NCBI GenBank assembly: GCA_026397015.1
Contig: JAPLVR010000001.1
Coordinates: forward strand, 21,745-85,744
Source of the DNA: Candidatus Iainarchaeum sp.
GTDB taxonomy: Archaea; Iainarchaeota; Iainarchaeia; Iainarchaeales; JAAZKV01
Length of the DNA: 64,000 nucleotides
Reading direction: 5' to 3'
Shown here: one piece after another, positions 31,337-36,392 of the stretch
Layout of the letters: each line of letters begins with the position of its first letter
Position numbering within the stretch: the first letter of the stretch is position 1
Program-made: the position numbers and the translations under genes
Notes under the pieces: generated by a model
The model's input: the letters and a program-made list of their open reading frames with translations, nothing else
Told to the model about the DNA's origin: nothing
Database searches by the model: none

Positions 31337-31370
31337 GTTTTCAAAAAGCAGTTGCGTGACCCGGGCGGGA
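31337..31370 (+). repeat. Island intergenic repeat, copy A
   Basis: GTTTTCAAAAAGCAGTTGCGTGACCCGGGCGGGA. Compare copy B at 36341-36392. Confidence 0.65.
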
Positions 31371-31424: not shown

Positions 31425-31970
31425 ATGCCGCCCTCCGCCGTCAAATCAATTCGAGATTTAATCTTTTGGCAGTATGCGAAGCTCGTTTCGAAGTCCGCGG
31501 GTTTCGGAATCAACGCAAGAGCCTTTCAGATGAGCACTTTCAAAAAGCTCCAATCGGAAGAAATGCAGTGGTCGGGAACAATCAGGGAGTATGTTAAGGA
31601 GCACGAAAAGCCGAACGAGTGCATTTATTGCGGCGTGAAAACTAATCTGACTCTTGAGCATATTCTTCCGAAGTGCTGCGGCGGCCCGGATTCTACTGAT
31701 AATTCGGTTTGGATTTGCAAGTCCTGCAATTCAAAGAAAGGCGGAAAGCGCCTTTACGAATATTTCGGATTGGGAAACAAGGATAAAATACCGAGGATAG
31801 CGGAAGGAAAATACTTGAAACTGCTTTATTCTTTGCACGAGAAAAAAGGCACGCTGAATGAAACCGATTTGTCGAAATTTTGCGAGGTTTGCGATTTGGG
31901 CGCGAAATGCCCGAAAAAGGCGAAATTGACGGTTTATTGCCTGGAAGGAGCGTTTCAGAAACAAAATTAA
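31425..31970 (+). CDS. HNH endonuclease
   Basis: CIYCGVKTNLTLEHILPKCCGGPDSTDNSVWICKSCNSKKG (CxxC...H...N...CxxC). Confidence 0.8.
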   Translation: MPPSAVKSIRDLIFWQYAKLVSKSAGFGINARAFQMSTFKKLQSEEMQWSGTIREYVKEHEKPNECIYCGVKTNLTLEHILPKCCGGPDSTDNSVWICKSCNSKKGGKRLYEYFGLGNKDKIPRIAEGKYLKLLYSLHEKKGTLNETDLSKFCEVCDLGAKCPKKAKLTVYCLEGAFQKQN

Positions 31971-31990
31971 TGCAATTTGTTGATAGATTG

Positions 31991-32695
31991 TTAATTTTTC
32001 TTCTTGAATCGCAGAACACCAACAATAATGTAGGTTTTCGGGCTTTTGTGGATATTTCCGACAAGGAAATATGTTTTCCACTCTTTGTCGGTTAAACGCA
32101 GGTTGTCGAAGACTTTTTTGCAGTGCTCTTTGCTGTCGGGGTTCTTTCTCATCCATTCGTAACAGCCCCATTCGACGATTTGCTGTTTGTGCTGCGGGTT
32201 CTTGCACGAGCATTTTGCTGTGCATTCATAAACTACATATGGTTTGAATTTGAATTCGTTTTGGTTTATTATATAATAATCTGGATCGAAAAGTTTGGTC
32301 TGGATTGATGTTGCCGAGTTTTGTGTGACAAGCTCAAAGTCAATGATTTTTGGTTCAATTACCCCGAAACTTTTTCTCGCCTTAATAAGGTCTCCAAGGT
32401 TGTCTTTTGCGAGTGATTGTATTAATTTGCTTCTTTCTTCTTTTGGATATTCGCTTTTTTTTCTAATCCATTTTTCGATTCTCTGCCAGTCCTCTTTTGA
32501 GCGGTAAATTTTCCAGGTATTTTCTCTGTGGTCCTGAGTATTTAGCTCGACGGTAGCATCAAAGACATCCCACTGGCGAAGCAACTTTTTTGGAATCGGG
32601 TAAAGTCTTACGAGGCCGTGTTCTTTTGAGTAAGCGCAAACGCATCTTGATATTCGGCCGCCGCTCAAACTGTTTGGTGCGCCTTGGCCTAACAT
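31991..32695 (-). CDS. Hypothetical 234-aa Cys/His-rich protein
   Basis: ECTAKCSCKNPQHKQQIVEWGCYEW...HCKK. Start ATG 32695 lies 20 nt after the DUF488 gene stop. Confidence 0.5.
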   Translation of the reverse strand: MLGQGAPNSLSGGRISRCVCAYSKEHGLVRLYPIPKKLLRQWDVFDATVELNTQDHRENTWKIYRSKEDWQRIEKWIRKKSEYPKEERSKLIQSLAKDNLGDLIKARKSFGVIEPKIIDFELVTQNSATSIQTKLFDPDYYIINQNEFKFKPYVVYECTAKCSCKNPQHKQQIVEWGCYEWMRKNPDSKEHCKKVFDNLRLTDKEWKTYFLVGNIHKSPKTYIIVGVLRFKKKN

Positions 32696-32715
32696 GACCA
32701 AGTCTTTGAGTTCAA

Positions 32716-33549
32716 TCAAATGTGAACAACCTCGTGGTTCAAAAAATCGCTTAAGACTCCGCGATGGCAAAAATCCTTGTCCGCTTCGAAGCACATGAGG
32801 GCAATTTTTTCCTTTTTACCGAGGGATTCCAGTTCGGTTATTTTTTCCTTTTTATCAGGCAAGGATGCTTCGTATTCTTTGAACAGTTCCTTGTAATCTT
32901 CTTCGGAATTCAGTTCCTTCCTTTTTTCGGATTCTATTCCGAGTTCGGGAAAATGAATGTATCTTATATTGACGTCGGCTAAATGTTTCGATAAACTATT
33001 TTTTGAAAATCCTTTTTTCATGCTCATTGCATTTTTTCTTACGTCAACCAAAATTGAAATCTTGTTTTTGACCAATTCGTTAAGGAATCCGTCCAGTGTT
33101 TTTCCTTCGTATCCGATTGAGCAGACGCCTTTCTCAGGCCCACCTTTTTCCATTCTTGGCGAATCACTATTGATTGTAAATTCTACAAAATTTGCATAAA
33201 CAAAATTTTTTATTGCATCAGTAGTTGGATGTTCTTCAACTATACGGCCGGCTTCTGAATTGATTTCATTGGCATTATCAATTTTGTTTATTAATTCTAT
33301 TCCATTCTTGGTTAGTTCCAATCTATTTTCGTTAAGAAGCCCCTCACTTTCAAGATAAGAAAGGTCGGCATAAATTTGATTAGAAAACGGCCCGTATTTG
33401 TACGGGAAAAAGTCGTAGCCGATTTTTTCAAACCCGAACTTTTGCCTCAGCAAAAAAATAGTTTTAACTAGGTATGTCTTTGACCTAATTTTCCTTTCAC
33501 TCAGCTTTTTAATTATTTGAAGCAATAGTTTTTGCCTTCTGTAAAGCAT
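32716..33549 (-). CDS. wHTH (YwgA/SocA-like) N-terminal domain fused to DUF488
   Basis: N-terminal FPYKYGPFSNQIYADLSYLESEGLL. C-terminal IGYEGKTLDGFLNELVKNKISILVDVR...ALMCFEADKDFCHRGVL is a typical DUF488 pattern. Confidence 0.7.
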   Translation of the reverse strand: MLYRRQKLLLQIIKKLSERKIRSKTYLVKTIFLLRQKFGFEKIGYDFFPYKYGPFSNQIYADLSYLESEGLLNENRLELTKNGIELINKIDNANEINSEAGRIVEEHPTTDAIKNFVYANFVEFTINSDSPRMEKGGPEKGVCSIGYEGKTLDGFLNELVKNKISILVDVRKNAMSMKKGFSKNSLSKHLADVNIRYIHFPELGIESEKRKELNSEEDYKELFKEYEASLPDKKEKITELESLGKKEKIALMCFEADKDFCHRGVLSDFLNHEVVHI

Positions 33550-33621
33550 GCAATAAATAGTGATTTATGGTATATAAATTATTCGTAACCTTTCTGCTGG
33601 TGACGAAATTTCAAAGCCTTG

Positions 33622-33658
33622 AATCCTCCCAAAATCGCGTTTTTAAAAAGCAGTCCCG
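33622..33658 (+). repeat. Island intergenic repeat, copy C
   Basis: AATCCTCCCAAAATCGCGTTTTTAAAAAGCAGTCCCG. Confidence 0.6.
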
Positions 33659-33681
33659 AACCCTGTTCGGCTTGGAGCGTT

Positions 33682-33763
33682 CAGCCTTTTTTTCGAAAAA
33701 AAGCCGTGGCACCCTGCAGGGTGTCACGCTTCGTCCCCTAAGGGGACTTAGTGGCGAAAAAAA
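33682..33763 (+). repeat. Expanded hairpin element
   Basis: The T7/A7 hairpin CAGCCTTTTTTTCGAAAAAAAGCC is followed by two extra hairpins (GTGGCACCCTGCAGGGTGTCAC and GTCCCCTAAGGGGAC) and then GGCGAAAAAAA. Confidence 0.65.
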
Positions 33764-33848: not shown

Positions 33849-34142
33849 TTACCAATTTTTTCTCACTGTTTTTGCAATTCTTTTTCCGGTTTTTGGGTCG
33901 TATTCTATAAGGACACTTTTTCTTAGGCCGCCTTCTAAAGAAGTATATTCCTTTTCATAAGACTGCCTTACTCCCTCACGAGTCCATTTTTTGGTTTTAC
34001 TCAGTCTCGCATACGGAGAAAATAGCGATGCTAATATTCGTTTGCCGCTCTTTTCGAAGCCGTGGACATATTGTTCTAATCCGCCTTTACCTTGCCTTGC
34101 CCCTCTCATTGCCCTGTCACTCAAAAACCTCTTTATCGGCAT
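33849..34142 (-). CDS. Hypothetical 97-aa basic protein
   Basis: ATG 34142 with TTTTATATATT ~30 nt upstream. Confidence 0.35.
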   Translation of the reverse strand: MPIKRFLSDRAMRGARQGKGGLEQYVHGFEKSGKRILASLFSPYARLSKTKKWTREGVRQSYEKEYTSLEGGLRKSVLIEYDPKTGKRIAKTVRKNW

Positions 34143-34181
34143 CCAATCACCATTAATAAGACTCAACCCAAATATATAAAA

Positions 34182-34226
34182 CTTTCCAAACCGCGTTTTT
34201 GCGGAAGAGCAGTCGGGTAACCTGGG
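34182..34226 (+). repeat. Island intergenic repeat, copy D (degenerate)
   Basis: CTTTCCAAACCGCGTTTTTGCGGAAGAGCAGTCGGGTAACCTGGG. Confidence 0.5.
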
Positions 34227-34304
34227 AACATTTGAGCGTGTATTCTTCAAACCGGCACCGCGCCCCCGATTAATTTAAAACCCTAAATTTGCTTATTTTT
34301 AGGC

Positions 34305-35477
34305 ATGGCAATCTATTCGCATTCGAAATTGGCTGCTTTTGAGGATTGCAGGTACAAGTACAAATTGTGCTACATTGACGGGATTAAGTTTGAGCGGGCC
34401 AAGGCGGCGCATTTGGTGCTTGGCGGCGTTGTTCACGGGGTTTTGGAAAAGCTTTACTCCGATTTAAAGTACCAAAAAACCGATTCTTTGAAGGATTTGC
34501 TGGATTTTTTTGACGATTGCTGGGAGAAAGAGTGGACTGATGAAGTAATTAACCCGAAAGAAAGCGAAGGCATTACCGAAGAGCACTTTAAGTCCATGGG
34601 AAAAAAGTATATTGAGGAATATTACGGCCGCTACAAACCCTTTAACCAAATCAAAATAATTGGTTTAGAAACACAGGACAAACTAAAACTAAAGAACGGG
34701 AGCTATTATCATATCAGAATCGACAAATTGGCCTGCGACGGGGACACATACTACGTTTGCGACTACAAAACCAACTTAGGCATGAAAGACCAGAGTGATG
34801 CCGACCAGGACCGGCAGCTGGCAATGTATTCTTTGTGGGTAAAGAAAACGTTCAGGGATGCTAAAAAGATAGTTTTGTTGTGGCACATGCTGGCTTTCGA
34901 CAAGGAAGTGGCCTCGGAAAGAACTGCTGAACACCTCGAAAAACTTGAAGACGAAGTGGTAAAACTGATAGAAGAAATCGAGTCAACCAAGCAATTTCCG
35001 ACAAACGTTACCGGAAGATGCGATTACTGCGAATACAAACAAATGTGCCCGAGTTTTAAGCATGAAGCGGAGCTGGAAACAAAAACGGTGAAAGAATTCA
35101 AAGCGGATGAAGGGGTAAAACTGGTGAACAAATACGCCAAACTAAAAGATACGGAAAGCCGGGTAAAGGAAGAAGCTGAGGAAACAAAATCGGACTTAAT
35201 TGCATTCTCAATACAAAAAGAAGTAGACGTAATTTATGGCTCGAACAAAAAAGTGTCGGTAAAAGAATATGACAAAATCATGTGGTCCGAGGAAAACAAA
35301 GAAAAGCTGGCGGAGCTGCTCAAAAAAGGCGGCTTATACGAAGAATTCTCGATGATAAGCTATCCAAAGCTCAATGCGCAAATAAACGAAGGAAACCTAG
35401 GAAAGCCCATAACAAAATTGGCGCAAAAAGAAAAAGACTACCGAGTAAATCTGTCAAATAAGAAAAAAGAAGAATGA
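34305..35477 (+). CDS. Cas4/RecB-like PD-(D/E)xK nuclease with a Fe-S Cys cluster
   Basis: N-terminal FEDCRYKYKLCY, RIDKLACDGDTYYVCDYKT (D...D/ExK), QLAMY, C-terminal GRCDYCEYKQMCP. Confidence 0.8.
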   Translation: MAIYSHSKLAAFEDCRYKYKLCYIDGIKFERAKAAHLVLGGVVHGVLEKLYSDLKYQKTDSLKDLLDFFDDCWEKEWTDEVINPKESEGITEEHFKSMGKKYIEEYYGRYKPFNQIKIIGLETQDKLKLKNGSYYHIRIDKLACDGDTYYVCDYKTNLGMKDQSDADQDRQLAMYSLWVKKTFRDAKKIVLLWHMLAFDKEVASERTAEHLEKLEDEVVKLIEEIESTKQFPTNVTGRCDYCEYKQMCPSFKHEAELETKTVKEFKADEGVKLVNKYAKLKDTESRVKEEAEETKSDLIAFSIQKEVDVIYGSNKKVSVKEYDKIMWSEENKEKLAELLKKGGLYEEFSMISYPKLNAQINEGNLGKPITKLAQKEKDYRVNLSNKKKEE

Positions 35478-36340: not shown

Positions 36341-36392
36341 ATCCTTCCAAATTCGCATTTTCAAAAAGCAGTCGCGTGGCCTGGGCGGCGAG
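36341..36392 (+). repeat. Island intergenic repeat, copy B
   Basis: ATCCTTCCAAATTCGCATTTTCAAAAAGCAGTCGCGTGGCCTGGGCGGCGAG. Confidence 0.65.

Follow-up and report, generated by a model that had tools for sequence, protein, structure and literature searches.

DUF488 is, to our knowledge, a very large protein family without an assigned function. What, then, is one of its members doing at the head of a two-gene pair in an archaeal genomic island? The pair lies in a stretch of 64,000 nucleotides (nt) from Candidatus Iainarchaeum sp. (GenBank assembly GCA_026397015.1, contig JAPLVR010000001.1, positions 21,745 to 85,744 of the forward strand), which we refer to throughout as the window. Gene A (32716-33549) encodes the DUF488 fusion, and gene B is the Cys-rich gene downstream of it, ending at 31991 (Table 1). 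A preliminary description of this DNA had grouped the two with a convergent HNH nuclease gene as a possible functional module, adding that such a fusion, found in a defence setting and with an obligate partner, could help to give DUF488 a role. That last idea has worn well: the two genes are linked at all 23 loci that could be evaluated, they match a catalogued defence candidate, PDC-M19, and their island setting is in keeping. Any claim to the novelty of the pair has gone, since PDC-M19 is already in the catalogue. On balance we think it probable that A and B form a translationally coupled operon, a divergent member of PDC-M19 from the DPANN archaea, in which B is a protein of two oligonucleotide/oligosaccharide-binding (OB) folds and A brings the DUF488 domain.

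The match of A to PDC-M19 is a strong one. Against the PADLOC model PDC-M19A (PDLC04505) the protein scores 1.6e-75 and 252 bits, its residues 3-272 aligning with positions 2-283 of a profile of 294. For B the connection runs through relatives. In the canonical pairs at two loci (L011 and L013, where A is 42-45% identical to ours), a gene of 251-254 amino acids overlaps the stop codon of A and scores 1e-118 against PDC-M19B. The B protein of the window is 23-24% identical to these canonical B proteins (BLAST E 2e-7 over residues 26-236), and one phage protein family, phrog_25907, matches both over their full length (the window's B at 7.8e-27, the canonical B at 2.9e-32). It is because of this BLAST bridge and the shared phrog_25907 that we count the window's B as kin of PDC-M19B. 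Judged from these sequence comparisons, what the window carries is most likely a divergent form, from DPANN archaea, of the PADLOC candidate PDC-M19. It has the same two-gene, same-strand, overlapping layout, with A matching over its full length, and B is of the same length and fold class. It differs from the canonical system in the low identity of B, in Asn at two positions where Glu is conserved, in extra Cys residues, in the lack of a Q..LF tail and in its DPANN hosts. The PDC systems are a set of 145 candidates reached by 'guilt-by-embedding' in BREX, DISARM and type I restriction-modification (R-M) loci, and their authors list all 145 as predicted candidates without experimental test (Payne et al. 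2024, bioRxiv 10.1101/2024.01.29.577857).

How closely are the two genes tied to one another? The preliminary description had the partner starting at an ATG (32695), giving a protein of 234 amino acids 20 nt beyond A. A downstream, same-strand partner carrying a Cys/His cluster is indeed there, but it most likely begins 8 codons further upstream, at TTG 32719, and so runs to 242 amino acids. This start overlaps the TGA of A by 4 nt (TTGA, within tTTGAttg); the junction reads ...CAC ATT TGA in the frame of A and TTG ATT GAA CTC AAA... in the frame of B. We take TTG 32719 to be the most likely start because the public gene call for an identical B protein (P0001) is also 242 amino acids long and because the first eight residues, MxxLKxLV, are conserved across 19 homologues. 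Given this overlap of 4 nt, translation of A and B is coupled, and there is no 20-nt spacer. The TATA-like box upstream of A (TTTATATA) is likely, from its sequence and position, to be the archaeal promoter of a leaderless A-B operon.

The linkage holds wherever it could be evaluated. At each of the 23 loci A and B are neighbours that read in one direction; 20 of these loci were fetched through B (all from DPANN genomes), one is the window itself, and 2 were reached by way of A. In all 20 and in the window, the gene immediately upstream of B, on its strand, is a DUF488 gene; in the other 2, B comes immediately after A. The preliminary description had made its case depend on conserved linkage and on the partner not belonging to some known, unrelated enzyme family; linkage is kept, and B matches no such family, nor indeed any family in Pfam or NCBIfam. 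The cassette itself is sporadic. Our survey covered 215 genomes of the phylum, from 79 genera, and found it in 17 genomes and 16 genera; a genome of the same genus as the window's (G149) is without it. In the window the pair belongs to a low-GC island that also holds a type IIG R-M enzyme, an NYN protein and a Cas4-like nuclease.

The DUF488 assignment of A is secure: 2.8e-30 and 105.9 bits (cut-off 22.2) against Pfam PF04343, and 7.8e-9 and 36.3 bits (cut-off 27) against PF22751, the model of the 'active' DUF488-N3a subclade. This half of the protein belongs to the rhodanese-phosphatase superfamily, and there to the 'active N3a' subclade. In an alignment of 27 homologues of A, over which its conservation was counted, C253 and the run C261-H262-R263 are invariant, and both are present in the window's protein. 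The AlphaFold2 (AF2) model of A scores well (pLDDT 90.7, pTM 0.87). In it the DUF488 half resembles Cys-dependent phosphatases of the protein tyrosine phosphatase (PTP) fold, among them an RNA 5'-phosphatase (Foldseek probability 0.5-0.75).

The other half of A is where a second known system comes into view. Residues ~1-125 form a helical winged-helix domain like the C-terminal (DUF4065/Panacea-related) domain of DarG, and the top Foldseek match of A is chain 7yk3_D, from the Mycobacterium tuberculosis DarTG complex (probability 1.00, TMt 0.53, 148 columns). By sequence, A matches the PADLOC model of DarG at 8.3e-5, and the weak matches of its N-terminal domain to DarG models fall at positions 163-258 and 170-264 of those models, which is the C-terminal part of DarG. 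Against the NCBIfam DarG model (NF048014) A reaches 16.1 bits, where the cut-off is 250, and does so in the region of the C-terminal domain only; A has no macrodomain. The preliminary description had spoken of a winged helix of the YwgA/SocA kind fused to DUF488. The open reading frame (ORF), the DUF488 domain and a winged-helix-type N terminus all stand, but the Pfam model for DUF4065/SocA (Panacea) finds no match in residues 1-141 of A, even at E<=10. Homology between DUF4065/Panacea proteins and the C-terminal inhibitor domain of DarG is reported (PMC13621843), and it is from this homology, together with the fold match to 7yk3, that we would draw a kinship between the N-terminal domain of A and Panacea. 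Sequence searches of the PDB with A, with a profile of A and with a profile of B returned no relative of known structure for either protein. From its model, A is strongly predicted to be a DarG-C-terminal-like domain joined to a DUF488 domain with a Cys-phosphatase-like fold.

B had been described as a Cys/His-rich unknown. That label gives way to a predicted dual OB-fold protein. The AF2 model (pLDDT 84, pTM 0.83) shows two OB folds and a helical linker, and Foldseek returns RPA, Teb1, TEBP-alpha, LEF-3, HIN and SSB, with probabilities up to 0.99 and E values down to 2e-4. Whole-chain template-modelling scores are low (0.2-0.38) because the orientation of the domains differs; single OB folds superpose at 3-4 Å. 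The model strongly predicts for B a double OB fold like those of proteins that bind single-stranded DNA (ssDNA). With the multi-OB proteins RPA70, Tetrahymena Teb1, Oxytricha TEBP-alpha and baculovirus LEF-3 it shares the tandem topology and, in the second OB fold, a helix linking strands 3 and 4; no sequence similarity to any of them is detectable. In RPA70, as in B, a Cys/His knuckle is inserted in an OB fold (that of DNA-binding domain C).

Conservation in B, counted over 47 family members, singles out P15, C26, R38, Y40, P41, D63, R65, E67, S/T68, S117, E/D183, W184, G185, E188, G221 and N222 as near-invariant. In our reading of the model, the N-terminal members of this set (P15, C26, R38, Y40, P41, D63, R65 and S/T68) would fall on strands and loops of the first OB fold that make up its usual ligand face. 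The Cys/His cluster to which the preliminary description drew attention is a different matter. Its residues are present (C166, C170, C172, H177 and C186, in an insertion in the second OB fold), but they are conserved in only part of the family. C26 is found in 46 of the 47 members, C166 in 26, C170 in 22, C186 in 13 and C28 in 2. A Cys4 metal site common to the family does not emerge from these counts, C26 alone being near-invariant and C166, C170, H177 and C186 occurring in roughly half of the members or fewer; the cluster is probably a facultative zinc knuckle. In the DPANN subfamily, positions 16 and 67 show a paired change from Glu to Asn, possibly at one functional site.

Other identities for B were considered. 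Its 'GQGAPN' motif, terminal 'H-K-S-P' and four Cys residues raised the possibility of a family-4-like uracil-DNA glycosylase, which is ruled out by the AF2 model: this is an all-beta tandem OB protein, not the alpha/beta fold of those enzymes. That B might be ARPP (ARG and rhodanese-phosphatase-associated protein; Iyer et al. 2022) would fit its association with rhodanese-phosphatase enzymes and its near-invariant C26; its model, however, is a tandem OB fold as against the meander topology described for ARPP, a comparison made from the description. The window's B does not match DuOB (PF22557), though the fold is compatible, and two relatives do so below the threshold of 27 bits: a Gordonia phage protein, gp43, at E 0.002 and 18.6 bits, and one of the 47 family members, at E 0.009.

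What the wider B family adds is a picture of exchangeable parts. Searching with a profile of the DPANN subfamily and clustering at 50% yielded 422 representatives, of which 212 fell at E<=1e-10. Four of these proteins are fused at the C terminus to an HNH domain (HNH_5/HNH, E 1e-9 to 1e-15) and one to a GIY-YIG-like domain. The gene upstream of the B::HNH fusions encodes a DUF4326 protein with a helix-turn-helix (HTH)/ParB-like domain in three cases, at L046 (60-1852), at L050 (2-1773) and on the contig JGI 3300047160, and in these it overlaps the fusion gene; in the fourth (L049) it encodes an ASCH-domain protein. The B::GIY-YIG protein is preceded by a DUF488 protein of 347 amino acids, within a phage-like string of genes. 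DUF4326 or ASCH in the place of DUF488 looks, in these gene orders, like partner swapping between sister enzyme families. A belongs to the 'active DUF488-N3' subclade, and the interchangeable pairing of B-family genes with DUF488 or DUF4326 is as expected for sister enzymes. The module would seem to join a dual-OB core to an enzyme that varies and, optionally, to a nuclease.

A further feature of the family is a short motif, Q..LF, found within the last 25 residues of 21 of the 104 full-length B representatives, where we estimate that about 0.3 would be expected by chance. Carriers include P0201, P0207, P0227, P0233, P0242 and P0246, and many other representatives have the near variants DLF, SLF or PLF. 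The tail resembles the motif with which bacterial proteins bind the beta sliding clamp; its meaning is uncertain. It is absent from the window's B and from its DPANN relatives, and in the B::HNH fusions it is internal, just before the HNH domain.

The family also turns up in phages. In the temperate Gordonia phage Nymphadora (L054, NC_031061.1, 4018-6265), the B-family gene gp43 (hhalign 99.6%) follows the immunity repressor gene gp44 and converges on gp42, a DUF488 gene of 150 amino acids. The same arrangement recurs in four related phages (seven records in all). The slot beside the immunity repressor is typical of defence genes expressed from prophages. The annotations are of little help here: gp42, labelled 'HipA toxin', is really a DUF488-N3a protein, and gp43, labelled 'hypothetical', ends in QISLF. 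The defence system of another Gordonia phage, CarolAnn (gp43/44), was dropped as a parallel, since it is not among the phage matches of B.

Several observations weigh against the assignment to PDC-M19 and to defence. The direct match of the window's B to PDC-M19B (PDLC04507) is weak, at 1.9e-7 and 28.8 bits over residues 82-233. At positions 16 and 67, which are Glu in 29 and 42 of the 47 family members respectively, the DPANN subfamily carries Asn, and its chemistry may therefore differ. OB folds occur in proteins that do not bind DNA. The N-terminal domain of A varies between loci: homology is confined to the DUF488 half in L001 and L006-L010, and L034 and L035 have no such domain at all. 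The family of the PD-(D/E)XK nuclease encoded next to A is found in 79 of the 215 genomes, mostly without B. Occurrence in phages (phrog_25907 and phrog_14939) could equally mean a phage function. Finally, our literature search yielded no paper on DUF488 that mentions a defence system and none that names PDC-M19; nor did it yield anything joining DUF488 with DUF4326, or anything on DuOB.

If A and B do work together in defence, the models suggest how. B would detect ssDNA or DNA ends that lie exposed on invading or replicating DNA. The DUF488 domain might be a Cys-dependent enzyme of phosphate or sugar-phosphate chemistry, acting at a terminus or adduct of nucleic acid; this would fit a prediction for DUF4326 (PMC9503650), namely that it processes terminal phosphates on ribose. 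The N-terminal domain of A could bind DNA itself, or could restrain B much as the C-terminal domain of DarG blocks DarT. Nucleases would be plug-in effectors, either fused to B (HNH, GIY-YIG) or encoded next door (PD-(D/E)XK). A more elaborate scheme, which we regard as unlikely, is an immunity module of enzyme plus decoy: the DarG-like domain of A would mimic ssDNA and so hold B off host DNA, the DUF488 domain (or DUF4326 or ASCH) would erase or create a terminal phosphate or sugar mark, and B would license a fused or adjacent nuclease, in the window HNH and/or PD-(D/E)XK. Were it true, this would be the first biochemical role assigned to DUF488.

The likeness to DarG can also be taken at face value. 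In that case the pair would be a toxin-antitoxin or abortive-infection system of the DarTG type, with B as a DNA-directed toxin that binds ssDNA at forks (nuclease-armed in some relatives) and A as its antidote in two parts, the DarG-like domain filling the ssDNA cleft of B and DUF488, in the role of the DarG macrodomain, undoing or processing the lesion enzymatically. By analogy this is a possible reading, if a doubtful one. The top structural match of A, the alignment of its N-terminal domain with the C-terminal part of DarG models and the published homology between Panacea and the DarG inhibitor domain (PMC13621843) all point towards it, as do the ssDNA-binder type of fold in B, the coupled translation of the two genes and the B::nuclease fusions, which are plausible toxins. 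The N-terminal domain of A finds its best structural match in the DarT-binding C-terminal domain of DarG (PDB 7YK3); in A as in DarG such a domain is fused to an enzyme domain proposed or known to act on nucleic-acid adducts, and ssDNA is what the partner protein binds or acts on in each case (for B, by prediction). The A-B pair, however, has neither a macrodomain nor a DarT with an ADP-ribosyltransferase fold, its domain order is reversed, and the Pfam Panacea model finds nothing in A. Nor is the DarG-like domain constant across the A family, being absent or replaced at the loci named above (L001, L006-L010, L034 and L035) and in Gordonia gp42 (DUF488 alone), which weakens the case for an essential toxin-neutralising role. 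A function outside immunity altogether seems to us quite improbable, the least likely of the readings set out here: an accessory module for end processing in DNA repair or replication, in which an ssDNA- or end-binding OB protein, a phosphatase-fold enzyme and sometimes a nuclease are recruited to the replisome through the sliding clamp. It would make sense of the clamp-motif-like tails in 21 of 104 B representatives, of the OB fold of B, of the PTP-like fold of A with its RNA 5'-phosphatase match, and of a neighbouring nuclease of the Cas4/RecB type. It sits poorly with a cassette found in 17 of 215 genomes, missing from a genome of the same genus, and lying in a low-GC island, in prophage immunity regions and beside R-M genes; the tail, moreover, is lacking from the window's B and its DPANN relatives, and its internal position in the B::HNH fusions means that it may be no clamp motif at all.

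Does the HNH gene belong with the pair? The preliminary description was right that this is a stand-alone nuclease converging on A and B: Pfam scores it 2.3e-10 and 40.7 bits for HNH_5 (PF14279, cut-off 27.5) and 31.2 bits for HNH (PF01844, cut-off 21.4), the core motif CIYC...EH...DN...CKSCN can be read in the translation, and its stop at 31970 faces that of B at 31991 across a 20-nt gap. One may imagine a single module of three genes, with the HNH protein as a nuclease effector recruited by B. Besides the short gap, this is favoured by the fusion of four B representatives to HNH_5/HNH and of one to a GIY-YIG-like domain, by 44% identity between the HNH core of the window and the HNH domain fused to B in P0281 (pairwise E 3e-12), and by the position of all three genes between repeat copies. 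We find it improbable all the same. The orientation is convergent, and the HNH gene has a TATA-like box of its own (ATTATATAAA), which would give it a separate transcription unit. Its closest homologues, 63-66% identical and from two other genomes (G154 and G093), have no A, B or PD-(D/E)XK gene within 3-5 kb; their neighbours are ribose-5-phosphate isomerase, a pyridoxal phosphate enzyme, a transglutaminase-like protein and miscellaneous genes, and neither genome gave a match to B. An adjacent HNH gene is found in none of the 22 other A-B loci (in L008 there is one 2 kb away, beside an AAA ATPase), and two HNH_5 domains that are 44% identical over 45 residues are nothing unusual. Most likely, the HNH gene shares the island with the pair as an independent gene and is no conserved part of the module, and the earlier idea of it as a third member is rescued only in part, by those distant relatives of B that are fused to HNH or GIY-YIG. 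At the second-closest pair (L004/L036, 1662-2678), the place of the HNH gene is taken by a convergent ORF of 147 amino acids, an unknown, followed by a HEPN-domain gene.

To return to the pair as a divergent form of PDC-M19: PDC-M19 is among the most widespread of defence candidates, and its present standing is that of a catalogued candidate, not a discovery. Its new contributions are a DPANN subfamily of B so divergent that the PADLOC model scarcely picks it up, and a comparative picture of a constant dual-OB core, a swappable enzyme (DUF488, DUF4326 or ASCH) and plug-in nucleases (HNH, GIY-YIG or PD-(D/E)XK). The picture offers hypotheses that can be put to the test, namely ssDNA binding by B, Cys-dependent chemistry of the phosphatase type by A, and neutralisation in the manner of DarG. 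If they are true, DUF488 would gain a role, and a new mechanism of defence or of toxin-antitoxin action would be defined.

Table 1. Features of the A-B locus and its surroundings, in window coordinates
Feature	Position	Strand	Remarks
Gene A	32716..33549	-	277 amino acids, intact; winged-helix-type domain ~1-125 and DUF488 ~141-277
Gene B	31991..32719	-	242 amino acids from TTG 32719 (most likely start), intact; predicted tandem OB fold, divergent DPANN subfamily of PDC-M19B
TATA-like box TTTATATA	33571..33578	-	ends 22 nt upstream of the ATG of A; read from the sequence
Stand-alone HNH nuclease gene	31425..31970	+	181 amino acids, intact; Pfam HNH_5, HNH
TATA-like box ATTATATAAA	31391..31400	+	25 nt upstream of the ATG of the HNH gene; read from the sequence
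Cas4-like PD-(D/E)XK nuclease gene	34305..35477	+	390 amino acids; PF12705 1.5e-27; divergent from A across 755 bp
Island repeat copy	31338..31368	+	flanks the HNH gene on its left; pairs at 90% identity with 36358-36388
Degenerate repeats (two copies: 33640-33670, 33690-33720)	33640..33720	+	upstream of A; 65-71% identity to the reference copy

On the other side of the pair stands the PD-(D/E)XK gene, a recurrent but facultative partner and a more credible optional third part than HNH. A gene of this kind adjoins A-B in 6 of the 23 loci (L001, L006, L008, L010, L037 and the window). In L001 a homologue 49% identical to ours overlaps the end of B, as do shorter PD-(D/E)XK genes in L006, L008 and L010; in L037 the gene is divergent from A, the layout seen in the window. 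That it might be an obligate third member is ruled out by its wide distribution in genomes that mostly have no B. In some families, Cas4/RecB-like PD-(D/E)XK proteins of ~390-410 amino acids are nearly universal (20 of 22 genomes in one, 7 of 7 in another). Such near-universality suggests a housekeeping-like role in many DPANN lineages, despite the island location here.

The repeats of the island had been taken to bound the module on both sides. They are real enough: the copies at 31338-31368 and 36358-36388 pair at 90% identity, where 0.03 matches would be expected by chance, and the two copies upstream of A are recognisable in degenerate form. All are intergenic, however, and nothing marks them as the limits of a unit. 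Next to the degenerate copies, between A and the PD-(D/E)XK gene, an ORF of 133 amino acids runs along the minus strand (33849-34250). It has no family match and just one weak match (E 5e-5) among the 215 genomes; it is either an orphan gene or no gene, and the related locus L037 has 122 bp at this point.

Further afield, two of the loci in which A, B and PD-(D/E)XK stand together carry further genes of note downstream of the trio. In L010 (5248-8412) this is a fusion of a phospholipase D-type nuclease with an SNF2/ResIII helicase, 1054 amino acids long, and in L001 (7921-11963) it is an N6/N4 methyltransferase followed by a ResIII helicase, an arrangement like that of type III R-M systems. 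At both loci the cassette is embedded beside genes of the restriction type.

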